DNA from: Escherichia coli
GTDB taxonomy: Bacteria > Pseudomonadota > Gammaproteobacteria > Enterobacterales > Enterobacteriaceae
DNA length: 64,000 nt
Assembly (NCBI RefSeq): GCF_044324875.1
Contig: NZ_CP172185.1
Reading direction: 5' to 3' (one strand)
Shown: positions 2,037 to 41,301 of the stretch, piece after piece
Layout of the letters: each line of letters opens with the position of its first letter
How positions within the stretch are numbered: position 1 is the first letter of the stretch
Translations under genes and position numbers: made by a program
The notes under the pieces: generated by a model
Databases searched by the model: none
What the model was told of the DNA's origin: nothing
The model's input: the letters and a program-made list of their open reading frames with translations, nothing else

Positions 2037-3695
<1,659 letters not shown>

Positions 3696-3726
3696 TTAAA
3701 TTCGTATGTTCAGTGTCGTGCGCGGA

Positions 3727-4071
<345 letters not shown>

Positions 4072-4097
4072 TTACGTGGTTTCCCGGCTGGTGACCA

Positions 4098-4131
4098 GAG
4101 AAATGGGGATGAGGCTTCGCCCCTTCAAGGG
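4098..4131 (-). promoter_or_regulatory. Heat-shock sigma32-type promoter of groES-groEL
   Basis: On minus strand CTTGAA (-35-like), ~14-nt spacer, CCCCATTTC (-10-like), matching sigma32 consensus TTGAAA/CCCCATNT; located upstream of groES start. Confidence 0.6.
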
Positions 4132-4295
4132 GGAAAAAGAAAAAAAATCCTGATCAGCACAAAATCGGGTGAAAACCCTGATTCACCTCACATTTCATCG
4201 CAATTTCTTCATCACCGGCATAAGCGAATCTGATTGTGCTACCATCGAAAATCTACGCAGTTGCCCATAATTTGGGCGCAATCGGACATCAACCC

Positions 4296-5552
4296 ATGAG
4301 TGGACTCAAACAAGAACTGGGGCTGGCACAGGGCATTGGCCTGCTATCGACGTCATTATTAGGCACCGGCGTGTTTGCCGTTCCTGCGTTAGCTGCACTG
4401 GTAGCAGGCAATAACAGCCTGTGGGCGTGGCCCGTTTTGATTATCTTAGTGTTCCCGATTGCGATTGTGTTTGCGATTCTGGGTCGCCACTATCCCAGCG
4501 CAGGCGGCGTCGCGCACTTCGTCGGTATGGCGTTTGGTTCGCGGCTTGAGCGAGTCACCGGCTGGCTGTTTTTATCAGTCATTCCCGTGGGTTTGCCTGC
4601 CGCACTACAAATTGCAGCCGGATTCGGCCAGGCAATGTTTGGCTGGCATAGCTGGCAACTGTTGTTGGCAGAACTCGGTACGCTGGCGCTGGTGTGGTAT
4701 ATCGGTACTCGCGGTGCTAGTTCCAGTGCTAATCTACAAACAGTTATTGCCGGACTTATCGTCGCGCTGATTGTCGCTATCTGGTGGGCGGGCGATATCA
4801 AACCTGCGAATATCCCCTTCCCTGCACCTGGTAATATCGAACTTACCGGGTTATTTGCTGCGTTATCAGTGATGTTCTGGTGCTTTGTCGGTCTGGAGGC
4901 ATTTGCCCATCTTGCCTCGGAATTTAAAAATCCAGAGCGTGATTTTCCTCGTGCTTTGATGATTGGTCTGCTGCTGGCAGGATTAGTCTACTGGGGCTGT
5001 ACGGTAGTCGTCTTACACTTCGACGCCTATGGTGAACAAATGGCGGCAGCAGCATCGCTTCCAAAAATTGTAGTGCAACTGTTCGGTGTAGGAGCGTTAT
5101 GGATTGCCTGCGTGATTGGCTATCTGGCCTGCTTTGCCAGTCTCAACATTTATATACAGAGCTTCGCCCGCCTGGTCTGGTCGCAGGCGCAACATAATCC
5201 TGACCACTACCTGGCACGCCTCTCTTCTCGTCATATCCCGAATAATGCCCTCAATGCGGTGCTCGGCTGCTGCGTGGTGAGCACGTTGGTGATTCATGCT
5301 TTAGGGATCAATCTGGACGCACTTATCATCTATGCCAATGGCATCTTTATTATGATTTATCTGTTATGCATGCTGGCAGGCTGTAAATTATTGCAAGGTC
5401 GTTATCGACTACTGGCGGTGGTTGGCGGGCTGTTATGCGTTCTGTTACTGGCAATGGTCGGCTGGAAAAGTCTCTATGCGCTGATCATGCTGGCGGGGTT
5501 ATGGCTGTTTCTGCCAAAACGAAAAACGCCGGAAAATGGCATAACCACATAA
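4296..5552 (+). CDS. yjeH: APC-family amino-acid exporter YjeH
   Basis: ORF 4236..5552; start taken at MSGLKQELGLAQGIGLLSTSLLGTGVFAV giving ~418 aa polytopic membrane protein; synteny. Confidence 0.8.
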   Translation: MSGLKQELGLAQGIGLLSTSLLGTGVFAVPALAALVAGNNSLWAWPVLIILVFPIAIVFAILGRHYPSAGGVAHFVGMAFGSRLERVTGWLFLSVIPVGLPAALQIAAGFGQAMFGWHSWQLLLAELGTLALVWYIGTRGASSSANLQTVIAGLIVALIVAIWWAGDIKPANIPFPAPGNIELTGLFAALSVMFWCFVGLEAFAHLASEFKNPERDFPRALMIGLLLAGLVYWGCTVVVLHFDAYGEQMAAAASLPKIVVQLFGVGALWIACVIGYLACFASLNIYIQSFARLVWSQAQHNPDHYLARLSSRHIPNNALNAVLGCCVVSTLVIHALGINLDALIIYANGIFIMIYLLCMLAGCKLLQGRYRLLAVVGGLLCVLLLAMVGWKSLYALIMLAGLWLFLPKRKTPENGITT

Positions 5553-27748: not shown

Positions 27749-29833
27749 TTACGCCTGACCGGTGTCTCTGGTGACATATTCCGGAGCTCCGGAGAGAGTA
27801 AAGGTAACGCGATCATCGGCAGAAGCATCTCCATACTGCAGATGCCCGTCGTTGGGGATCATGGCCAGTTTGCCGTAATAGCGATACACATTGTATTCAT
27901 CCTGTGTATAGCCAAAGAAGGACTGATTATTCAGTTGTGAACCCGACAGGCTGACAAACTCGCTGGCAAGAAGATGACTTCCCGTATTATCCAGTTTGTT
28001 CGCGTCAATCAGCAGATTATTACCGGCCGAAATTCTGGCATCCCCCCCTGTTGCACCAACATCGACGCGTGTTGTGCCAGTCAGAAATTTCCGGGTGGCT
28101 CCCTTTTCAGTCGGAACGGCCCATGCCTCAAAACCACCACCGGCAGTACCGCTCCAGGACTTCACATAATATCCCCATCCATTTTCACCTAAATCGCCCA
28201 CTCTGACTGAAACAGAATTTACACCATCAGGTACTGCGACATTCTCAACCGGAATGTATGATTTTGTCTCATTTATACCCTCCCGCTGATTCAGTAAATG
28301 TCCGGTTCTGATGGTGATATCACCGCGGGTGGTTTCGATATTCCCGGAGGTATTAATCACTTCAGCATTCGCGGCACCACTGACATCTTTCTGCATCACC
28401 AGGCTGTAACCCGCCAGCATATCGCCGTGATGGTTCCGGATGGTGCTGGCAAACAGCGAGAGGTTATTGCCCGCATACAACAGTGCGGTGTTAATGACTG
28501 CCCCGGCGACCGTTAACACCAGACTACCCGTCGTGCCGGTAAAACCGTCGAGAGTGATATCTCCCCTGCTGGTCAGGCTGACGTCCCCGCCTGCCTGCAG
28601 GCTGCCGCTGGCATTCATCGCAATCCCGCTGCCGCTCAGTGCCGTGGTGCCGTTGCCGGCGGTCAACTGGCCATTGTTGGTCAGCCTGCCTGCAGCATTC
28701 AGCGTGATACCGTTGCCCTGCAATGTGGCGCCATTGGTAATATCACCCTGGCTGCTGACGGAGAGTTGTTTATTCGCGGCGATAACGCCCTGTGCGGTCA
28801 AACCACGTGTGAGCTTCAGCGTCAGGTTACCGAGTGCAACCAGCTGGCCCGCGCCGCTGAGCGAGACCATTTCAGCAAGCATATCACCGCCGCTGAACAC
28901 CTTCCCGCCGGCGTTGTTCAGGCTGTTCCCTTTTATTGTCAGGCCCTGATTACCCAGCAGCGTGCCGCTGTTGGTGATGGTCTGCGTGTTGACGTTCAGT
29001 TGTGCAGCCTGGAACAGGCCACGGTTGGTCAGACTGTTACCTGTGAGCGTTGCCTGATTCGCCGCCATCACAGTGCCATTACCGGCAAGCTTCGCCACGT
29101 TCAGCAGCAGGTCAGTGGCCTGTAGCCAGCCACTGCCACTGTAGTCCGGCGTGGTGAACGTCAGCTCACCGCCGGAAAGAATCTTGCCACTGTTGTGGGC
29201 CTGCGTTGCCGCGCTGAGCGTGGTTTTACCGTTGCCCTGAATGGTGCCGTCATTAGTCAGCACAGGTGCAGAAAGCGCTGATACGTTCTGACTGAGAAGC
29301 ACACCGCTGGTCTGGTTGGTCAGGGCATTCAGCAATGTAAGAGTCAGCCCGCTGTCGCCCTGCACACGACCTGAGTTGGTCAGCGAACTGGCGGTGATTC
29401 GGTTATCCGCCCCCTGAAGCTGCCCACTATTGCTGATGTCTCTGGCGTTGACGTTTAATGTACCGCCTGTCAGCATTTTACCGTGCTGTTGCAGATTACC
29501 ACTGAGTGTCACATTCAGGCTGTTAACACCACTGATTTCGCCACCGTTGCTGAGCGAATCACCATTCACTTCCAGCGTCTTCGCGCTGATTAATCCCTTG
29601 TTACCCAGCACTTTCCCGGTAAGGCGGGCATCGCCCAGGGCGGTAATTTTGCTGCCGGTGGCAGCAATAACATCGCCACTCAGGGTCAGAGCCAACTCCA
29701 GCGCACTCTGAACAGCACCGCTGCTGGTCAGGCTGCTGGCATCCAGAGTAATGTTCTGCCCCTGAATCCGGCCGCTGTTGGTCACATCTCCTGCGCTCAG
29801 CGTCAGCGAGTTCTGGCTCGATCCGCGCACCAC
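27749..29833 (-). pseudogene. Fragment of a large filamentous-haemagglutinin/CdiA-like repeat protein (two-partner-secretion exoprotein), truncated at both ends
   Basis: 694 aa of degenerate ~20-aa repeats rich in TLSG/LTNSG/IQGNG/NAL motifs; no signal peptide or TPS domain; 3' end abuts IS66 copy 1; 5' end abuts the GC-rich block. Confidence 0.6.
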
Positions 29834-29872
29834 TTATCCCGAACTGCGTCAGCAGTTGATCGGAGGTACACC

Positions 29873-30424
29873 ATGAAACGCATTCTGACCCGTGGCCTGG
29901 CGCTGCTGATGCTGATGCTCGCCGGCTGCAGCATCGAGGTCACCGAGTACCGGCAGCAGCAGCCCGCCCTCGACATCTTCCACTATTTTCAGGGTCGAAC
30001 CGAGGCGTGGGGGATGGTGCAGGATCGCCGCGGTAAACAGCTGCGCCGCTTCCATGTAGCGATCGATGGCGACGTCGTCGGCGACACCCTGACGCTCCAT
30101 GAGCGCTTTGTCTATGACGATGGCGAGAAACAGCAGCGGGTGTGGCGCATTCGCCGCACCGGCGATAACCATTATCAGGGCACCGCCGGGGATATCGAAG
30201 GCGTGGCCAGCGGCCAGGCGGCAGGCAATGCCTTTCACTGGCGCTACAGCATGAACGTCGAGGCCAGCGGCAGCCGGTGGCTGCTGCACTTTGACGACTG
30301 GATGTTCCTGCAGGACGGCAGCCATTTGTTTAACAAAACCGAGATGAAGAAATTCGGCATTACGGTGGCCACCGTGACCCTTTTCTTTACCCGAACCACA
30401 GCAGAAGAGAGGACAGCGCCATGA
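29873..30424 (+). CDS. Lipoprotein (DUF3833-like)
   Basis: 183 aa; lipobox MKRILTRGLALLMLMLAGCS; overlaps next gene start by 4 bp. Confidence 0.55.
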   Translation: MKRILTRGLALLMLMLAGCSIEVTEYRQQQPALDIFHYFQGRTEAWGMVQDRRGKQLRRFHVAIDGDVVGDTLTLHERFVYDDGEKQQRVWRIRRTGDNHYQGTAGDIEGVASGQAAGNAFHWRYSMNVEASGSRWLLHFDDWMFLQDGSHLFNKTEMKKFGITVATVTLFFTRTTAEERTAP

Positions 30425-31380
30425 ACACGCAACCTGTCATTGGGATCAGCGGATGTTTAACCGGCTCAGCCGTGCGATTCGACGGCGGGCATAAGCGTAT
30501 GGGCTTTGTGATGGATGAGCTCGCGCAGTGGGTGGCGTTTAAGCCCGTCTGCCCGGAGATGGCGATCGGCCTGCCCGTTCCCCGCCCGGCGCTCCGGCTG
30601 GTGCAGACCCCGGTCGGGGAGATCCGCATGCGCTTCAGCCACGCCCCGCACGAGGATGTGACGGAGAAGATGGCCGATTTCGCCAACGCCCATCTGGCAA
30701 CCCTGGGCGAGCTGTCGGGCTTTATCGTCTGCGCCAAATCGCCGATCTGCGGGATGGAGCGCGTGCGGCTGTATGATGAAAAAGGCAATCGCGGGCGTAA
30801 GGAAGGCGTGGGGCTGTTTACCGGCGCCCTGATGGCGCGCTACCCGTGGCTTCCGGTGGAAGAGGATGGCCGGCTGCACGATCCGCTGCTGCGGGAGAAT
30901 TTTGTCGAGCGCGTCTTCGCCCTGCATGAACTCAACGCCCTGCGCGCCCGCGGCCTGACCCGCCACGGCCTGCTGGCCTTTCACAGCCGCTACAAGCTGC
31001 AGCTGCTGGCTCACCACCAGGCGGGCTACCGCGAGATCGGCCCCTTCGTCGCCTCGCTGCATGAATGGGAGGATCTGGAGGCTTTCTTCGAGGTCTATCG
31101 CGAAAAGCTGATGGCGATCCTCAAGCGGCCCGCCTCTCGGAAAAACCACACCAACGTGCTGATGCATATTCAGGGTTATTTCCGCGACCAGCTGAACAGC
31201 CGCCAGCGCGGCGAGCTGCGGGAGGTGATCCTCAACTATCGCGCCGGGCTGCTGCCGATCCTCGCGCCGCTGACGCTGCTTAAGCACTATCTGGCCGAGT
31301 ATCCGGATCGCTACCTGCAGGCGCAGAACTATTTTGACCCCTACCCGCAGGATCTTGCCCTGCGCCTGACGGTGAACTGA
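30421..31380 (+). CDS. YbgA-like protein (DUF523/DUF1722 architecture)
   Basis: 319 aa; N-terminus VIGISGCLTGSAVRFDGGHK typical of DUF523. Confidence 0.55.
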   Translation: MNTQPVIGISGCLTGSAVRFDGGHKRMGFVMDELAQWVAFKPVCPEMAIGLPVPRPALRLVQTPVGEIRMRFSHAPHEDVTEKMADFANAHLATLGELSGFIVCAKSPICGMERVRLYDEKGNRGRKEGVGLFTGALMARYPWLPVEEDGRLHDPLLRENFVERVFALHELNALRARGLTRHGLLAFHSRYKLQLLAHHQAGYREIGPFVASLHEWEDLEAFFEVYREKLMAILKRPASRKNHTNVLMHIQGYFRDQLNSRQRGELREVILNYRAGLLPILAPLTLLKHYLAEYPDRYLQAQNYFDPYPQDLALRLTVN

Positions 31381-31385
31381 GGGAA

Positions 31386-31620
31386 CCTGGGCCAGCTGCC
31401 CGGCGGCGCTGCGCTTGCGCGGGCCTGGGAGGGGATCCCGCAGGCCTCCTCAGGAACGTAGGCCGGATAAGGCATTTATGCCGCCATCCGGCACAACCAC
31501 AGGTATGGAGCTTGAAGTGTCCTGCCCGGCGGCGCTGCGCCTGCCGGGCCTGGGGGGTATCCCGCAGGCCTCCTCAGAAACGTAGGCCGGATAAGGCATG
31601 TATGCCGCCATCCGGCATAA
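31386..31620. repeat. Tandem duplication (~120-bp unit) each carrying a REP-type palindromic element
   Basis: Two copies of CCTGCCCGGCGGCGCTGCGC...GGGATCCCGCAGGCCTCCTCAG(G/A)AACGTAGGCCGGATAAGGCAT(T/G)TATGCCGCCATCCGGCA. Confidence 0.7.
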
Positions 31621-31692
31621 ATGGAGCGCACCAGTCGTAGCCCGGCTAAGCGTAGCGCCAGCCGGGAACGCTCCTTCGACAACGCTATCGCA

Positions 31693-33075
31693 TCAGAACC
31701 ACGCCTCAAACATCCCGCCGACGTTCAGCGAATCCAGCTGCTGGTCTTTGGTGCCGTTGACCTTAGCGGTATGCTCGTTGTCCACCTGACCGCCGGTCAC
31801 GTAGAAGCGCAGCATCGGACGGAACTCCGGCCCCATGCCGATGGCGATGTTCTGCGACAGCGTCAGCTTCCAGCCGTGGTTATCCCCGCCCTGGTCGTAG
31901 TCCACGCGCTGGTAGCCCGCTTCCAGCCAGGTGGAGTGCACGTCGTTCCAGAAGTACATCGGCCGCACGATGGCACCGTAGTTTTTGCGGTTGTCGGTAT
32001 TATCTTTGCCGTTGTCGTAGTCGTGGAAGGCCAGCAGATATTCCACCTGCGCCTGCTGGGTGAACTTATGGCTGCCCTCGAAGCTAGCGTAGACCGTGGT
32101 CAGGTCGTCGGTTTTGTTGTAGACGCTGTTATCCGAGTTATCGGAGTAGCGCAGGATCACCTTGTTCACCCCTCTGTCGTTGGTGTGGCTCAGCACCAGG
32201 CCGCCCTGCCAGGCTTCGAGACGCGCGTCGCTGTCCACCGCCTTCGAGTCAAAGCCGTAGTTGGCGTACACCTCGACGTCGATCGGCCCGGCCTTGATGT
32301 TGTGGGTTTTGGTGGTCAGCGCGTAGTGGCCGTTGTCCCCGGTGTCGGAGCTGCCGGTACAGGTGATACGCGACGGGTTGGTCTCGTCGGCCATCACTTC
32401 CGGGCTACAGGATTTCACCTGCGACACCGCCGCCACGTCGAACTGCACGCCGCCGATATCAAAGTTCTTCACCCCGGCGCCCTGGCCGTCGTGGTTCATC
32501 CAGAAGTAGTCGTTGATCCCCTGTTGCGGACGCTGGTGGAAGTCGCGGCCGGCCCAGATATAGGCGTTGGGATTGGATTCCAGCACGTTGGTGACGCCGA
32601 CGTAGGCCTTCTTCAGGTTAACCTCGTCGCTCCAGTGGTCGAACATGACGTTGAGATCCCAGATAGCCCCCTGCGCGCTTTTGAAGGCTTTGCTGATCTG
32701 GAATTCGCCGCCGTTGCTTTCGTTGCCCAGACGGCCGATCGCCGAGGCGCCGTTATAGGAGCCGTCGACGCCGACATATTTCTGGTCGCCGGTCTGGAAA
32801 TGGGCGCCATAGCGGGCATAGCCGCTGAACTTGAGGCCGAACGGAATGGCCATATCCGGCGAGGCGGCGGTGGTCTGTGGGTTGGTAATGACGTCGACCT
32901 TTTTGTCGGCCGCGGCGTCAATTTTCGCCTGGCGGTCGGCCAGCGCTTTATCAACGGCTTTGGCGACGATGGCGTCGATCTGTTCCTGAGTAAATTCTTG
33001 CGCCATTACAGAGGTAAGCGGAAAAAACGCGGCGATAACCGCCATGGTTAATGGAAGTTTTTTTATCATTGTCAT
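31693..33075 (-). CDS. LamB-family sugar porin with N-terminal coiled-coil extension (ScrY-like)
   Basis: 460 aa; signal peptide then AQEFTQEQIDAIVAKAVDKALADRQAKIDAAADKK extension; C-terminal ...GGMFEAWF. Confidence 0.65.
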   Translation of the reverse strand: MTMIKKLPLTMAVIAAFFPLTSVMAQEFTQEQIDAIVAKAVDKALADRQAKIDAAADKKVDVITNPQTTAASPDMAIPFGLKFSGYARYGAHFQTGDQKYVGVDGSYNGASAIGRLGNESNGGEFQISKAFKSAQGAIWDLNVMFDHWSDEVNLKKAYVGVTNVLESNPNAYIWAGRDFHQRPQQGINDYFWMNHDGQGAGVKNFDIGGVQFDVAAVSQVKSCSPEVMADETNPSRITCTGSSDTGDNGHYALTTKTHNIKAGPIDVEVYANYGFDSKAVDSDARLEAWQGGLVLSHTNDRGVNKVILRYSDNSDNSVYNKTDDLTTVYASFEGSHKFTQQAQVEYLLAFHDYDNGKDNTDNRKNYGAIVRPMYFWNDVHSTWLEAGYQRVDYDQGGDNHGWKLTLSQNIAIGMGPEFRPMLRFYVTGGQVDNEHTAKVNGTKDQQLDSLNVGGMFEAWF

Positions 33076-33405
33076 GAGTTTCTCAATATAGGTTAATTTT
33101 ATTCAGACAATAACCAGCCTATTCTGAGCTGACAGAATATGTCGCTATCATCAGAACAAGTTATTTTTTATTTTGTACGGTCACAGAGGCATTACACAAT
33201 TATCGCTACTCGCCCTCCCTCACTGATATTAAAAAGGTGGCACAATGGCAGAACCATCCGCGCGGCGGATTGTTCCTCTATAGACAGTCAAACAGATAGC
33301 CTTTCGGCACAGACAGCATAAATACAACACGAACAAATAAACGCTATTTCCCGGCAGCGGGCACACGGCGGAATACATGCCCCCGCAGGGGCATGTCAGC
33401 CAAAT

Positions 33406-34725
<1,320 letters not shown>

Positions 34726-35136
34726 GATGAACTCCGAAATTGAGGAAGCCGAAAATTAACAACTGTGACACATCGTGTATTCTCATCGTCGGTTGCTCAA
34801 TTACGTTATTTCACTCAGCGATTGAGAAAATGCTCAAATGTGAGCCATCTCGCAAATAAAACTATTTTAAATATCTCGCTTCGCGCGCGTATAGAGTACA
34901 CTTCCTGGGGAATTCAGGTGGGCATAGCGAATTAAAATGCCGGTTTTGTCACATTGCCTGTCTGCCAAAAAATTAGCGGCGGATGGCGGCTCAACGCAAG
35001 TGATACAGGCCTTTGCTTCGAGGATCACAGAAGTAAAAAAACATAATTACTTAATTTAAAAACGTAATAGATTCTTCCATGTCAACTGTGTCAGAAAGTG
35101 TTTCACCTACACAAAACAAACCGGAGTCTGCTTAGA

Positions 35137-36591
35137 ATGAGTAAAAACATAATGCACAGTCGGCATGATGAATATCATAAATTAACCCGTGGAGAACGAA
35201 TTGGTTATGGCATGGGCGACTTTGCGCAAAACCTGGTTTTCGGCACAATTGGGGGTTTTCTGGCTTTGCATATGCTGACGGTAAATACCATCAGCACGGC
35301 AACGGCAGGCTTTATTTTTCTTTTTGTCCGCATAATTAACGTGTTTTGGGATCCGATGGTCGGCACCTACGTGGATAAACGAACCTCGAAGGCAGGGAAA
35401 TATCGTCCGTGGCTGTTACGAGCCGGCGTGCCGCTGGTGATCCTCTCGGCATTACTGTTCGCGCCCATCCCCGGAGTGAAAGGTTCGGTGGCTTTCGCCT
35501 TTATTATTTATCTGGCGCTGGACCTGGTTTATTCCTTAGTCAATATTCCCTATGGCTCGCTGAATGCGTCGCTGACCCGCGACCCGGAATCGATCGATAA
35601 ACTGACCAGTACCCGCATGATGCTGGCCAACAGCGCCAACCTGCTGGTCTATACCCTGTTCCCGATGTTTGTGCAGATGGCGGCGCCGAAAGATCGCAGC
35701 CTGAAAGACACCGGCTTTTTTGGCCTTGAGCTGAATATGGGGAATTATGCCGATCCGTCGGCAAATTACGCCTGGTTTGGCGTGTACGCCATCTATATGA
35801 TCATCGGCGCGGTGGCTCTGTTTATCTGTTATAAATTCACCAAAGAACGCGTTGTCGCGACCGCCGAGCAGACCGCCAACGTCAAAACCACCGACCTTTT
35901 CCACGAGCTCCGACATAACCGCCCGCTGGTTATTCTGGGCATGTTCTTTATGCTGGCCTTTACCTTCATGTTCTTCATGAACACTGTTAACGGCTTCTTC
36001 AACCAGTACGTCGTCGGCCACTCCGAATGGATGGGCGCGGTGGGTCTCGTCGCGTCTATTCCCGGCATCGCCTTCCCGATTTTCTGGCCGAAACTGAAAA
36101 AAATCTTTGGTAAAAAAGGCTTCTTCCATCTGTTCCTCGCCATGTTTATCGTCGGCGAACTGCTGACCTACGTCTGGTCCCGCGAAGGGATGCACGACGC
36201 CCTGTGGCTGGCCTACATCGCCACCTTTATTAAACAGTGGGGCTTAACCTCCGCCACCGGCTTTATGTGGGCGCTGGTACCGGAAGTCATCGCGTACGGC
36301 GAATTAAAATCTGGCAAACGCAATGCCGCCATTATCAATGCCATTATGGGACTCTTCTTCAAGATCGGCTTCACCATCGGCGGCGCGATCCCGCTGTGGC
36401 TGCTGGCGGTGTATGGCTTTAATGAAAGCGGCGCCGTGCAGAGCGCCAGCGCCATCGACGGGATCATTATGACCGCGGTGTGGATCCCGATCGCGCTGGC
36501 CGCTATTTCGATGGTGATTATCCAGGTTTATCCGATCTCCGATAAACATGTTACCGACATCAACCGTCAGCTGGATGAGATCCGCGTGTAG
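35137..36591 (+). CDS. GPH-family glycoside/xyloside:cation symporter (XynT/YagG-like)
   Basis: ORF 35098..36591; start taken at MSKNIMHSR...; 12-TM-type protein with GPH N-terminal motif GYGMGDFAQNLVF. Confidence 0.7.
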   Translation: MSKNIMHSRHDEYHKLTRGERIGYGMGDFAQNLVFGTIGGFLALHMLTVNTISTATAGFIFLFVRIINVFWDPMVGTYVDKRTSKAGKYRPWLLRAGVPLVILSALLFAPIPGVKGSVAFAFIIYLALDLVYSLVNIPYGSLNASLTRDPESIDKLTSTRMMLANSANLLVYTLFPMFVQMAAPKDRSLKDTGFFGLELNMGNYADPSANYAWFGVYAIYMIIGAVALFICYKFTKERVVATAEQTANVKTTDLFHELRHNRPLVILGMFFMLAFTFMFFMNTVNGFFNQYVVGHSEWMGAVGLVASIPGIAFPIFWPKLKKIFGKKGFFHLFLAMFIVGELLTYVWSREGMHDALWLAYIATFIKQWGLTSATGFMWALVPEVIAYGELKSGKRNAAIINAIMGLFFKIGFTIGGAIPLWLLAVYGFNESGAVQSASAIDGIIMTAVWIPIALAAISMVIIQVYPISDKHVTDINRQLDEIRV

Positions 36592-36649
36592 TTAAAAAAA
36601 TTATAAATCAGACCGATTCGTCACTTTCCATTTTAAAAGGTGTAATGAA

Positions 36650-38329
36650 ATGTCACTTATTCAAAACCCGATATTACGCGGCTTTAATGCCGACCCCAGT
36701 ATTATTCGCGTCGAGGATACGTACTATATTGCCAACTCGACGTTTGAGTGGTTTCCGGGCGTGCGTTTACATGAGTCGAAAGACCTGAAAAACTGGAACC
36801 TGCTGCCTTCGCCGCTCTCCACCACCACCCTGCTGGACATGAAGGGCAACCCCTCCTCCGGCGGCATTTGGGCGCCGGCGCTCTCCTGGGCCGACGGGCA
36901 ATTCTGGTTGGTGTATACCGATGTGAAGGTCACCGAAGGCGCCTTCAAAGACATGACCAACTACCTGACCACCGCGAAGGATATTCGGGGCCCGTGGAGC
37001 GACCCGATCAAGCTGAACGGAGTCGGGTTTGACGCCTCGCTGTTCCATGACGACGATGGCCGGAAATATATCGTCCAGCAAACCTGGGATCACCGGGAGT
37101 ACCATCACCCCTTCGATGGCATTACCTTAACGGAGCTGGATACCAACACGCTGAAGTTAATGCCGGAAACCGCGCGCACCATCTACCGCGGCACCGCCGT
37201 AGCGCTGGTCGAGGGGCCGCACCTCTATAAACTGAACGGCTACTACTACCTGTTTGCCGCCCAGGGCGGCACCGTGTTTACCCACCAGGAGGTGGTGGCG
37301 CGGTCGAAAACCCTCGAGGCCGACAGCTTTGAAACCGAGCCGGGCGACGTGTTCTTAACCAACGTCGACACCCCGGACAGCTACATCCAGAAACAGGGCC
37401 ATGGCGCGCTGGTCTCCACCCCGGAAGGCGAATGGTATTACGCCTCGCTCTGCGCCCGGCCGTGGAATCGCCCGGGGGAATCCATCTACGACCCGCGCGG
37501 CTGGTCAACCCTCGGCCGGGAAACCGCGATCCAGAAAGTGTACTGGGATGACGAGGGCTGGCCGCGTATTGAAGGCGGTCACGGCGGGAAAACCTTCGTC
37601 GAAGGACCGAAAGACGCCATCTTCACCGAAAGCGCCAGCGATAATAGCCAGCAGGATGACTTTACGTCGCCAGCCCTCGACCCGAACTGGAATACCCTGC
37701 GGGTGCCGTTTACGGCCAAAATGGGCACCACCGGTAACGGCAAATTAACCTTAATCGGCCAGGGCTCGTTAGCCAATACGCATGATCTGTCGCTGATTGC
37801 CCGCCGCTGGCAGGCCTTCTATTTTGACGCCGCGGTGAAGGTGAAATTCGAGCCCTTCAGCTACCAGCAGATGGCCGGGTTAACGAATTACTATAACGAC
37901 CGCCACTGGAGCTTCGTCTTCCTGACCTGGAATGAAATTAACGGCAAGGTCATCGAAGTCGGCGAAAATAACCGCGGGAAATACACGTCGTACCTGAAAG
38001 ATAACGCCATCAAGGTGCCGGACGGCGTGGAATACGTCTGGTTCCGGACCAAAGTCCGCAAGCAGACCTACAGCTATGAATACAGCTTCGATGGCGTGAC
38101 GTTCACCGAGATCCCGGTCCAGCTGGATGCCGCGGTGCTGTCCGATGACTATGTGTTGCAGAGCTACGGCGGGTTCTTTACCGGGGCGTTCGTCGGCCTG
38201 GCGGCGGTAGACTACGCCGGGTACGGCACCCAGGCTGAGTTTTATCAGTTCGAGTATCAGGAGCTGGGCGATAGCTTAGCGGCCGATGGCAGCTACAGCT
38301 GGGAGGCTGGCGAGACGCGGGATAAGTAA
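36650..38329 (+). CDS. Glycoside hydrolase family 43 beta-xylosidase (XynB/YagH-like)
   Basis: 559 aa; MSLIQNPILRGFNADPSIIRVEDTYYIANSTFEWFPGV typical GH43 N-terminus. Confidence 0.8.
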   Translation: MSLIQNPILRGFNADPSIIRVEDTYYIANSTFEWFPGVRLHESKDLKNWNLLPSPLSTTTLLDMKGNPSSGGIWAPALSWADGQFWLVYTDVKVTEGAFKDMTNYLTTAKDIRGPWSDPIKLNGVGFDASLFHDDDGRKYIVQQTWDHREYHHPFDGITLTELDTNTLKLMPETARTIYRGTAVALVEGPHLYKLNGYYYLFAAQGGTVFTHQEVVARSKTLEADSFETEPGDVFLTNVDTPDSYIQKQGHGALVSTPEGEWYYASLCARPWNRPGESIYDPRGWSTLGRETAIQKVYWDDEGWPRIEGGHGGKTFVEGPKDAIFTESASDNSQQDDFTSPALDPNWNTLRVPFTAKMGTTGNGKLTLIGQGSLANTHDLSLIARRWQAFYFDAAVKVKFEPFSYQQMAGLTNYYNDRHWSFVFLTWNEINGKVIEVGENNRGKYTSYLKDNAIKVPDGVEYVWFRTKVRKQTYSYEYSFDGVTFTEIPVQLDAAVLSDDYVLQSYGGFFTGAFVGLAAVDYAGYGTQAEFYQFEYQELGDSLAADGSYSWEAGETRDK

Positions 38330-38411
38330 AAGAGAGTGGGCCCACGCTACCGGTAAGGTAGCGTGGGGTTTGTGGTGTGTTTGATGTAATTAAAGCGAGC
38401 GCTGTCGGATG

Positions 38412-39050
38412 TCAGTCTGTGGGGCGCAGCCGGGCCTTCAGCTCTTCGGGGGTAAACGGCGGATCTCGCCGGTGCAGCATCGCATGGCAGTTGGGACATA
38501 CCGGGATCAGATCGGTTTCAGGGTTCAGGCGGTAGTCCTGCTTTATCCCGGCCAGCGGGATGAGATGGTGGATATGGATAAAGCCCTGGCCGATATCGCC
38601 ATAGCGGCTGGCCATATCCAGACCGCATACCTGACACTGGCAGCCATGCAGGCGAAGCGCCGCCTGACGAGCCTGACGGTCGCGCTCATAGCGATTGACC
38701 ACCACCTGCAACGCCGCCCCTTCCACGTACTCCATGGTCGTCTGCCCCTCATCGGGGAAAAGCGCAACCTCGTCATCGCCAGCGCCCTGCGACGCGATCG
38801 TAAATCCTTGCTCCAGTAACAGACGCACGCATTTTGATTTAATCCCCCCGCTGAAATCCGCCGGGGTAAATTCCGTTCCCGTCGCAAGCGTGGCCGCTAA
38901 CCCGACGATGGCTTTTGAAGGATACCGACGCCCCTCAAACTCGATCTCATACAGACGCGCGCTTTTAAACTGATGCGCAACGCCTGCATCGTAAGCGCGA
39001 ATGGCGGCGATGATGCATTCCCTGGATAAATGGTCCGGTAGTTTTTTCAT
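38412..39050 (-). CDS. HNH-family endonuclease with unassigned ~110-aa N-terminal domain
   Basis: 212 aa; C-terminal CQVCG...HIHHLIPLA...NPETDLIPVCPNCHAMLHRR HNH/zinc-finger core. Confidence 0.7.
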   Translation of the reverse strand: MKKLPDHLSRECIIAAIRAYDAGVAHQFKSARLYEIEFEGRRYPSKAIVGLAATLATGTEFTPADFSGGIKSKCVRLLLEQGFTIASQGAGDDEVALFPDEGQTTMEYVEGAALQVVVNRYERDRQARQAALRLHGCQCQVCGLDMASRYGDIGQGFIHIHHLIPLAGIKQDYRLNPETDLIPVCPNCHAMLHRRDPPFTPEELKARLRPTD

Positions 39051-39229
39051 AAGACATAGCTATCTGATGGCGCGAAGCTTGAGTATAAATAGAAAGCTAT
39101 GGTCTTTTCGAACAAATAACTGGCAGTGATAATTAAATCGCGATCCACGTAGAATCGCCGCATCTGGTAGGTTGATCGGCAAGGATTTTGCGAGCATCAT
39201 CGCATTTATTTAGCTGCCAATGTAACGCT

Positions 39230-40099
39230 ATGCCCTCCAGCACGACCCTGCAACACGCGATCGAGAACATCACCATCTGGCGCAAAGGCGAACAGCGTGC
39301 GCCGCATAAACCACTATTGCTGCTGTACGTCCTCTCGCAATACCAGCGCGGCCATGCGCGGATGTTCGACTACGCCTCGGAGATACGTGATGAGCTGCAT
39401 AGCCTGCTGGAACGCTTTGGCCCGCAGCGCCGCCAGTACCGGCCGGACATGCCCTTCTGGCGCCTGAAAGGCGACGGCTTCTGGGAGCTACACAACAGCG
39501 AACAGTGCTCAACCCAGGGCAGCCGACAGCCGCCCGGCAAAGAGCTGGAGCTCTGCCACGTCGCCGGCGGCTTTGATGAGCAGCATTTTGCGTTACTTAA
39601 CAGAAATAAGAAGCTGATCAATACCCTCGCCCATCAGATCCTCGAGGCGCACTTTCCGGAGAGTATTCAGGAAGAACTGGCTGAAGAGATGGGGTTTGAT
39701 CTGCTGCAGATCCGCAAAGAGCGCGACCCGCATTTTCGCCAGCAGGTGCTGCGCGCCTATAACTATGAGTGCGCTATCTGCGGCTTCAATATGCGCCATG
39801 ATAATACCTCCGTCGCCCTGGAAGCGGCCCATATCAAGTGGAAGCAGCACGGCGGCCCCTGCGAAATCCCTAACGGCCTGGCGCTCTGCGCGATTCACCA
39901 TAAGGCTTTTGATAAAGGATCCATTGGTCTGGATGAGGATATGCGCATCCAGGTTTCGCCGGCGGTGAACGGCGGAGGCATCGTTGGCAGGTTGTTCTGG
40001 GATTTTGATGGTAAGCCGATTACCTTGCCGATGGGGAAAGAATGCTATCCCCAGGAGGGGTTTGTGGCGTGGCACCGGCGGGAGGTGTTCAGGGGATGA
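39230..40099 (+). CDS. HNH-family endonuclease with unassigned ~190-aa N-terminal domain (candidate modification-dependent restriction enzyme)
   Basis: ORF 39188..40099; YNYECAICGF...AAHIKWKQHGGP...NGLALCAIHHKAFDKG HNH core; divergent from the neighbouring HNH gene. Confidence 0.7.
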   Translation: MPSSTTLQHAIENITIWRKGEQRAPHKPLLLLYVLSQYQRGHARMFDYASEIRDELHSLLERFGPQRRQYRPDMPFWRLKGDGFWELHNSEQCSTQGSRQPPGKELELCHVAGGFDEQHFALLNRNKKLINTLAHQILEAHFPESIQEELAEEMGFDLLQIRKERDPHFRQQVLRAYNYECAICGFNMRHDNTSVALEAAHIKWKQHGGPCEIPNGLALCAIHHKAFDKGSIGLDEDMRIQVSPAVNGGGIVGRLFWDFDGKPITLPMGKECYPQEGFVAWHRREVFRG

Positions 40100-41301
40100 G
40101 GGGGATGGTGATAAGCGGGTTTCGATGTTGAGCGTAGGGTTTAGGGATTGGGACTGTGTTTCGGAGAGGATTTCGTGGTTGATCAATGATTGGTCGTGGC
40201 TAGGTTAAAGGACTTATTTATTGATTGTTTTGATATTGATGCGAAGGCCTGACTCAAACATGCGATTTAACCTCATGATTTAAAATTGTTAATAATAAAC
40301 AACACCATCCTATACCAACACAGATACCAACACGAAAAATCACTGGTTTTCGGCATCGAACCAGGACAATCAGGTCCTGATTGAGATACCGAGCTCTGTT
40401 ACTCGTCATCTGCCTCGACAGGCTCCATTGCATCAAGTGGTACTCGCACCATCGCGATAGATCCAATCCGGATAAAAGCATCTTCCCCATCTATATCGGT
40501 TAACTGATATCGCTCACTTGATGCCGGATAATTGTGTCGATTGGCAACAGTGTACTCTTTCGTACAGCCAGAATGTGGCAGACTGAGGTGGAATAGATAA
40601 CGTCCGTATGCCCGCTGACCACCTCCGGGCGGGAGAGTGTGGTATCTGACATCATCATTTTTCCTTTTGGTTTATAAACGAAAACGCCAGCCGTATTCAG
40701 GCTGGCGTCAGGGTAATGAAGCGTGGTGAGTGATATTCACCGGTTCTGGTGCAGAAGCTGCAGATGACGCAGGGTACGGACATCCTCTCTGGCCTGTTCG
40801 ATACAGGGCAACAGTGCTGCCGATGTCAGTAGGCTATTTCCGGTTGATATACCCTGCCCGTAAATTACAGGGCAGGAATAGTATTATTAATTTCGGGAGA
40901 AGCTTAAGGTTGCCACATCGACAGTTTCATCACACAGGTTTTTGTCCTGAAATACTTTCTTATTTTTGACTTTAGCTAGCCATTGCCCGACATGAAGGGA
41001 GGGTACAGTGATGATACCGTCCTCATTACTTACAAAGGTAAGTTCTGCTTTATGAGCCGAATGTTTATGCTCTGCCGCATGAGTATGGCGGGATGATTTC
41101 AGATAACTGACAGAGTCAAGCTCCAGAGTGGCTCCGGCAAGCGGGGAAGTTTTATACAGAACTTTCAGCTTCACATCTTCACCGAAACGACTGATATCGG
41201 ATAACGGAATTAGACTGGCCCCCTGAATCTCCAGACAACCAGTATCACTTAAATAAGTGATAGTCTTAATACTAGTTTTTAGACTAGTCATTGGAGAACA
41301 G

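Follow-up and report, generated by a model that had tools for sequence, protein, structure and literature searches.

The spacer between two convergent genes in the stretch of Escherichia coli DNA analysed here (64 kb in length, hereafter the window, to whose positions all coordinates refer) holds a block of REP palindromes present twice in tandem. This raises the questions of what kind of element the block is, whether it was made in its present host, and whether the possession of two units rather than one means anything for the genes on either side. As judged from sequence comparison the spacer is very probably a Klebsiella-type BIME, a class of element defined by alternating REPs, recurrent linkers and tandem amplification (PMC2817692; PMC3333891). 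The account as a whole, in which a Klebsiella-type BIME was imported passively, varies in unit number in the ordinary way and supplies hairpins to the 3′ ends of the neighbouring genes, appears highly probable too, if a shade less so than this identification.

Anatomy of the spacer

The spacer measures 312 bp from stop codon to stop codon and its elements follow in the order A1-L-B1-s-A2-L-B2-s′-A3′, so that a unit of design A-L-B(-s), about 125 bp long, is present twice. To the left, on the + strand, lies a YbgA-family gene (30421..31380; DUF523/2-thiouracil desulfurase-like plus DUF1722), identified from the ORF list, Pfam matches to PF04463 and PF08349 and the RefSeq annotation of an identical locus; its TGA stop occupies 31378-31380 and the first REP stem begins 17 nt downstream. 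To the right, on the − strand, a LamB-family carbohydrate porin gene (31693..33075; ORF list, RefSeq annotation of an identical locus and domain search) has its stop codon at 31693-31695, 23 nt from the last REP. The convergent arrangement of a YbgA-like and a porin gene reported in a preliminary description of the locus is thus confirmed. A + strand ORF of 476 aa (31621-33051) runs antisense to the porin gene and several ORFs of 42-77 aa lie inside 31415-31640, while in another sequence one assembly calls a 35-aa gene within the REP array (L008:4058-4165); the antisense ORF and the small ORFs in the array look like GC-rich shadow or spurious ORFs.

The first palindrome, REP A1 (31397..31428), lies on the − strand, matches the Klebsiella REP-A type (KpA consensus) and reads TGCCCGGCGGCGCTGCGCTTGCGCGGGCCTGG as an iREP on the + strand. 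It is followed by a 29-nt tail-to-tail linker, L1 (31429..31457), and by REP B1 (31458..31493, + strand; GTAGGCCGGATAAGGCATTTATGCCGCCATCCGGCA), which carries a 5′ GTAG, matches the Klebsiella REP-B consensus and is close to the E. coli Y REP. A 29-nt head-to-head linker, s (31494..31522; CAACCACAGGTATGGAGCTTGAAGTGTCC), found with identical sequence in the metagenome contig L049, leads to REP A2 (31523..31553), again of the REP-A type, on the − strand with its iREP on the + strand, and a near-perfect palindrome. Linker L2 (31554..31581, 28 nt, tail-to-tail) joins it to REP B2 (31582..31617, + strand), a GTAG-headed B type by consensus match and fold, after which a short linker s′ of 19 nt (31618..31636), sharing ATGGAGC with s, precedes a fifth REP, A3′ (31637..31669, + strand; GTAGCCCGGCTAAGCGTAGCGCCAGCCGGGAAC). 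A3′ is A-type and GTAG-headed, is inverted relative to A1 and A2, and occurs in every allele of this spacer. Orientation and spacing can be written A<-35-B>-31-A<-34-B>, with A1 and B1 tail-to-tail and B1 and A2 head-to-head; B2 and A3′, which stand in direct rather than alternating orientation, are the exception to the pattern. A GTAG head is present in B1 (at 31458), B2 (31582) and A3′ (31637), while A1 and A2 have CCAG on the − strand, A1 having in addition one extra G relative to A2. The preliminary description had given each unit a single REP palindrome and had ended the cluster at 31620; a REP is indeed present in each unit, but there are two, of different type and opposite orientation, and the cluster comprises five REPs and runs on to 31669.

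The repeat itself was established by gapped local alignment. Copy 1 (31396..31496, + strand, 101 nt; REP A1, linker L1 and REP B1) and copy 2 (31522..31620, + strand, 99 nt; REP A2, linker L2 and REP B2) share 94 identities over 101 aligned positions, with five mismatches and two 1-nt indels, so that the copies are about 93% identical. The local alignment score of 163 compares with 16.4±2.3 (maximum 28) in 300 shuffles, and the tandem duplication proposed in the preliminary description is therefore real and far beyond chance, as is the significant similarity of the two units on which it depended. Within the limits proposed there, 31386-31620, the repeated part begins at 31396 and not at 31386. 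A repeat search recovers two direct-repeat families in the spacer, D1 and D2, with start-to-start spacings of 124 and 126 nt. Tandem Repeats Finder returned no rows for the array even at a minimum score of 30, probably because the 25 nt at 31497-31521 are without a full second copy and the array thus amounts to about 1.8 periods, less than two; the repeat was verified by alignment instead. Since 11 complete E. coli genomes and several assemblies made independently contain the identical 312-bp spacer, the repeat is not an assembly artefact.

Relation to the Klebsiella REP family

Klebsiella pneumoniae 342 possesses a dimorphic pair of REPs, GTAGGCCcggcAAGCGcAGCGCCgccgGGC (REP-A) and GTAGGCCggatAAgGCGaAGcCGCCatccGGC (REP-B) (Nunvar et al., 2010; PMC2817692, Table 1), which flank a cognate gene for a REP-associated tyrosine transposase (RAYT) (PMC2817692). 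The search for the same REP type in probable donor genomes, which the preliminary description had proposed, leads to these two consensus sequences: by blastn-short, A2 agrees with the published REP-A at 27 of 28 positions, and, with the variable loop set aside, B1 and B2 match the published REP-B. In one K. pneumoniae chromosome, copies of the REPs lie at 15 places by megablast and at 28 by blastn.

The way in which the palindromes are joined is also shared. The B-linker-A junction occurs at 53 loci, one in a genome and 52 in metagenome contigs, a few of which, with linkers of unrelated sequence, may have matched by chance. The single genome locus belongs to the K. pneumoniae type strain and contains two junctions, separated by 126 nt; genome contigs were scanned with a strict B-N-A pattern and metagenome contigs with a looser one, and only one genome locus was found because the strict scan required exact matching. 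The same unit design recurs at about 45 other Klebsiella-like loci in tandem arrays that repeat every 116-130 bp and number from two to six or more units, the units at any one locus being almost identical. At most of 81 junctions the head-to-head linker is 28-29 nt long and of related sequence, most linkers starting with CAA or TAA, and two main forms can be distinguished, CAAnGnCGGGTATGGnGyCnGnGGTGTCC and CAAyGACGGGAACGGAGTCTGGTACAGCT; linker s of the window is a member of this group. The tail-to-tail linker varies among loci, as it also does in the BIME-2 and atypical BIMEs of E. coli (PMC3333891).

Of 127 B-type copies across loci, 124 carry the GTAG head, and the B stems are kept through two-sided changes, with GGAT/ATCC becoming GGGT/ACCC, inner stems of GGC/GCC, GGCA/TGCC or GGCGC/GCGCC, and further outer-stem variants GCCCGAT/ATCGGGC and GCCCGG/CCGGG. 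In a crude test, 22 distinct inner segments proved self-complementary, with a mean terminal stem of 2.43 compared with 1.93±0.14 (maximum 2.35) in 500 shuffles. The CCAG-headed A variant is frequent at other loci, where it includes for example 14 identical copies, and the subtype of A1 with the extra G is seen there 21-22 times. On this comparison both departures, the CCAG head shared by A1 and A2 and the additional G in A1, are common subtypes and not private decay. In E. coli, GTAG is needed for binding by TnpA_REP (PMC3333891); if that rule holds here, A1 and A2 would be non-substrates of the enzyme.

Another Klebsiella BIME subfamily, with a unit of 126-128 bp amplified to at least five units, was seen in four contigs (L034:3960-4720, L011:150-520, L057 and L029), and in every unit of it the tail-to-tail linker contains TATCAAACGGTTA, a perfect IHF consensus. 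In E. coli an L linker that bears an IHF site is described as typical of the single-copy BIME-1.

An allelic series with zero to three units

The spacer between ybgA and the porin gene exists in alleles that differ in the number of units. The 0-unit form, on lac plasmids of Klebsiella, Raoultella and E. coli, consists of A1-L-A3′ only, in a spacer of 130 bp; a single unit, A1-L-B-s′-A3′ (182 bp), is present in K. pneumoniae strain 176, whose sequence is a chromosome filed among plasmids; two units are found in the window and in the metagenome contigs L024 and L049; and three units occur in K. pneumoniae 2020S07-151 (L064, NZ_CP129856.1). This last allele bears out the remark in the preliminary description that REP arrays can be IS targets, as an ISKpn1-family element of 1445 bp at 3460-4904 of NZ_CP129856.1 splits the loop of REP A1 and is flanked by a 3-bp duplication, TGC; excision of the element together with one TGC restores an intact REP A1. 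The reported targets of ISKpn1 are specifically the REPs, or palindromic units, of K. pneumoniae (Wilde et al., 2001, 2003, as cited in PMC1525189). The insertion shows these elements being recognised as Klebsiella REPs by independent, biological means.

The two units of the window are a mosaic relative to the Klebsiella alleles, A2-L2 resembling unit 1 of L049 and B2-s′ resembling the single unit of strain 176, so that the exact history of duplication cannot be reconstructed. Such a pattern would point to unequal exchange, or to conversion among units, more than to one clean duplication event. The junction of the 0-unit allele sits in a 3-nt CAG microhomology. An origin of the 0-unit allele by RAYT cleavage at two CTAC sites was considered and rejected, since cleavage there would leave ...CAGGAACGTAGCCCGG at the junction, where ...CAGTCGTAGCCCGG is observed.

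BIMEs of E. coli differ in copy number between strains while their units are conserved within a locus (PMC3333891), and the unit number at the present spacer very probably likewise reflects ordinary BIME expansion and contraction in Klebsiella. Units could be gained and lost by homologous or unequal recombination, by slippage between near-identical units or by strand exchange catalysed by RAYT/TnpA_REP.

The left edge of the array is also a break in synteny. Homology of the window to L024, L049 and a further sequence, H70, begins where A1 begins, to within about 10 nt, the start lying at 31396, the first base of the repeat unit, for L024 and at 31387 for L049. The same porin gene and two-unit array are seen at L024:880-1140 and L049:4052-4330, where an ABC-transporter permease gene (PF00528) takes the place of ybgA on the left. 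A break at A1 would fit REPs acting as recombination junctions, a theme already known (PMC1525189). A stronger version of this reading makes REP A1 a recombination hotspot that joins gene modules, with BIME-mediated and possibly RAYT-catalysed exchange rearranging 3′ gene neighbours and contributing to the assembly of the mobile xylose/porin block; we regard that version as improbable.

Hairpins and the ends of the converging transcripts

All of the five REPs but A1 give folds clearly superior to those of shuffled sequences, on both strands or, for A2, on the − strand only, with energies of −17 to −23 kcal/mol and z-scores of −2.6 to −4.0. For B1, B2 and A3′ the folds reach about −17 to −20 kcal/mol on both strands (z −2.6 to −4.0), the individual values being −18.4 (+) and −19.8 (−) kcal/mol for B1 (z −3.9 and −3.7) and −16.8 and −19.9 kcal/mol for A3′. 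REP A2 gives −22.2 kcal/mol on the + strand, where the signal is weak (z −1.5), and −22.8 kcal/mol on the − strand (z −3.3). The fold of REP A1, at −17.4 kcal/mol, is not better than that of its shuffles (z +0.09 and −0.49). A2 and A3′ can in addition pair with each other as a long hairpin (z −4.85). A single long hairpin of REPIN-like type across B-s-A was rejected, the segment folding as two independent hairpins.

On the established picture of REP and BIME action, either transcript would carry four to five stable GC-rich hairpins, one from each REP, so that both converging mRNAs would end in 3′ stem-loops, which may impede 3′-5′ exonucleases and damp read-through into the opposite gene. By analogy with characterized REPs, such a 3′ stem-loop role on both mRNAs is likely, and the balance inclines somewhat towards a measurable effect on 3′-end stability or read-through; that two units as against one should be of selective importance we hold to be quite unlikely. 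At the level of DNA, arrays of this kind might, again by analogy, bind gyrase or Pol I.

These hairpins lend themselves to two more specific readings. The array could be a bidirectional Rho-independent terminator, with termination as its primary selected function and the duplication as a reinforcement. Its position between the stop codons of convergent genes and its stable GC-rich hairpins on both strands would suit such a role, and a role of BIMEs in transcription termination has been suggested (PMC2817692). However, a terminator scan finds no intrinsic terminator inside 31381-31692, its sole match lying within the porin coding sequence, and a T/U run after the hairpin is absent for every REP in the spacer. 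Moreover, alleles with zero to three units coexist in Klebsiella, which argues against selection for a given dose. Termination as the selected function is accordingly very improbable.

In E. coli, naRNA4 derives from tandem REP arrays, and the second reading is that the spacer encodes a small structured RNA of the naRNA4 type (CssrE/REP325) serving nucleoid organisation with HU. The only Rfam matches in the region are indeed to naRNA4 (RF02564), on B1 and B2, with 30.9 and 29.1 bits and E-values of 0.007-0.02. Against this, both scores fall far below the gathering threshold of 59.5 bits, the matches take in no more of the model, which has 77 positions, than the REP hairpin of 37-43 nt, and no promoter-like site was found in or beside the spacer, while the resemblance is explained by the closeness of B to the E. 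coli Y REP. An RNA of this type is, if anything, slightly less probable than a terminator, and the Klebsiella-type BIME with hairpins at the 3′ ends of two genes remains our preferred reading.

Origin of the block and its neighbours

Over 29812-37818 the window is 96-97% identical to a K. pneumoniae chromosome and to Klebsiella lac plasmids. A Klebsiella-derived block at 29812-40823, situated in an E. coli genomic island, contains genes for a DUF3833 protein, ybgA, the LamB-type porin, xylA, an MFS transporter and a GH43 glycosidase. In E. coli strain H8 the same block adjoins a tRNA-Leu gene and an integrase. Abutting the block in the window is a 694-aa ORF on the − strand (27749-29833), whose product shows a faint signal of filamentous-haemagglutinin repeats and bears the annotation beta-strand repeat-containing protein elsewhere; at the equivalent position H8 carries instead a truncated DUF3833 gene and part of a gene for a restriction endonuclease that binds phosphorothioated DNA.

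The exact spacer is present in only 11 of 5426 complete E. coli genomes, a count that applies to the block as well; it is chromosomal there and always identical, and a shorter variant is found on two plasmids. Exact-protein look-ups with the porin and YbgA sequences return only the E. coli island itself, again with identical spacers. By blastn-short, no other REPs, of either E. coli or Klebsiella type, occur elsewhere in the 64-kb window, and a single REP cluster is as expected for imported DNA; no RAYT gene is evident in the window either. Given that the two-unit form occurs in DNA of the Klebsiella complex and that the E. coli copies are invariant, the duplication predates the transfer. On these comparisons the array was very probably made outside E. 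coli and arrived passively inside the Klebsiella-derived block, as a passenger on a xyloside/xylose block of about 10 kb within the genomic island.

The converse possibility, that the array is an active mobile REP doublet of REPIN-like type, inserted or amplified after arrival in E. coli, we find barely credible. BIMEs are substrates that RAYT/TnpA_REP can cut and recombine in vitro (PMC3333891), B is close to the Y REP of E. coli, and the pairing of A2 with A3′ offers a long hairpin; yet the two-unit form already exists in the Klebsiella-complex contigs L024 and L049, all E. coli carriers share the spacer base for base, B-s-A folds as two hairpins, and A1 and A2 are without a GTAG head. Island variants differing in unit number, or new copies of the unit at other places in the carrier genomes, would favour mobility, and that none has so far appeared weighs against it. 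Equally hard to credit is a one-off slippage duplication of an arbitrary piece of spacer of about 125 bp, unrelated to any repeat family, for which the incomplete second period, the silence of Tandem Repeats Finder and the lack of another copy in the window might speak, but which, as an event specific to this locus, is excluded by the dispersed copies, the A-L-B-s design with its conserved 29-nt linker recurring at dozens of unrelated loci, the elements matching a published Klebsiella REP consensus and alleles of 0, 1, 2 and 3 units existing.

Comparison with known REP systems

The array of the window agrees with the described REPs of K. pneumoniae (PMC2817692) in being extragenic and placed at the 3′ ends of genes, in consisting of imperfect palindromes and in the GTAG head of B1, B2 and A3′. 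It differs in that A1 and A2 have CCAG rather than GTAG, and in that the host is E. coli, in which the elements are foreign.

Among the elements of E. coli itself, BIME-2 and the atypical BIMEs, which PMC3333891 describes, after Bachellier et al., as tandem pairs of y and z2 REPs with S, s, l and r linkers, share with the window two alternating REP types, both kinds of linker and the tandem amplification of whole units. Near-identical units at each locus and a copy number that varies among strains are a further likeness (PMC3333891). In contrast to BIME-2, the second REP of the window is the GC-rich Klebsiella REP-A and not z2, the linkers are longer (28-29 nt each, for a period of about 125 bp), and their sequences are, as far as seen, unrelated to the E. 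coli motifs. BIME-1 (RIP/RIB; y-L-z1 with an IHF site) has in common with the array a tail-to-tail pair of REPs and a linker of about 30 nt, and the 0-unit allele A1-L-A3′ resembles it. However, the IHF consensus WATCAANNNNTTR is absent from 31381-31692, linkers included, and the unit is tandemly repeated; lacking an IHF site and not being single-copy, the array is not a BIME-1. The likeness to naRNA4/REP325 (RF02564) lies in the origin from a tandem REP array and in the resemblance of the B hairpin to the Y REP, whereas the spacer attains about half the gathering threshold and only the hairpin aligns.

Significance

REP and BIME arrays, their tandem amplification, their strain-variable copy number and their targeting by insertion sequences have long been described in enterobacteria including Klebsiella, and the present array is an ordinary case, already known in kind. 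Whether one unit or two are present probably matters little to selection. For annotation the array carries a warning, in that the small ORFs called within it are probably spurious. REPs of foreign type are a clean marker of the Klebsiella origin of this part of the E. coli island. The spacer also presents a compact natural series, with 0, 1, 2 and 3 units and with or without ISKpn1, that could be used to determine whether unit number affects the stability of mRNA 3′ ends or read-through between convergent genes.
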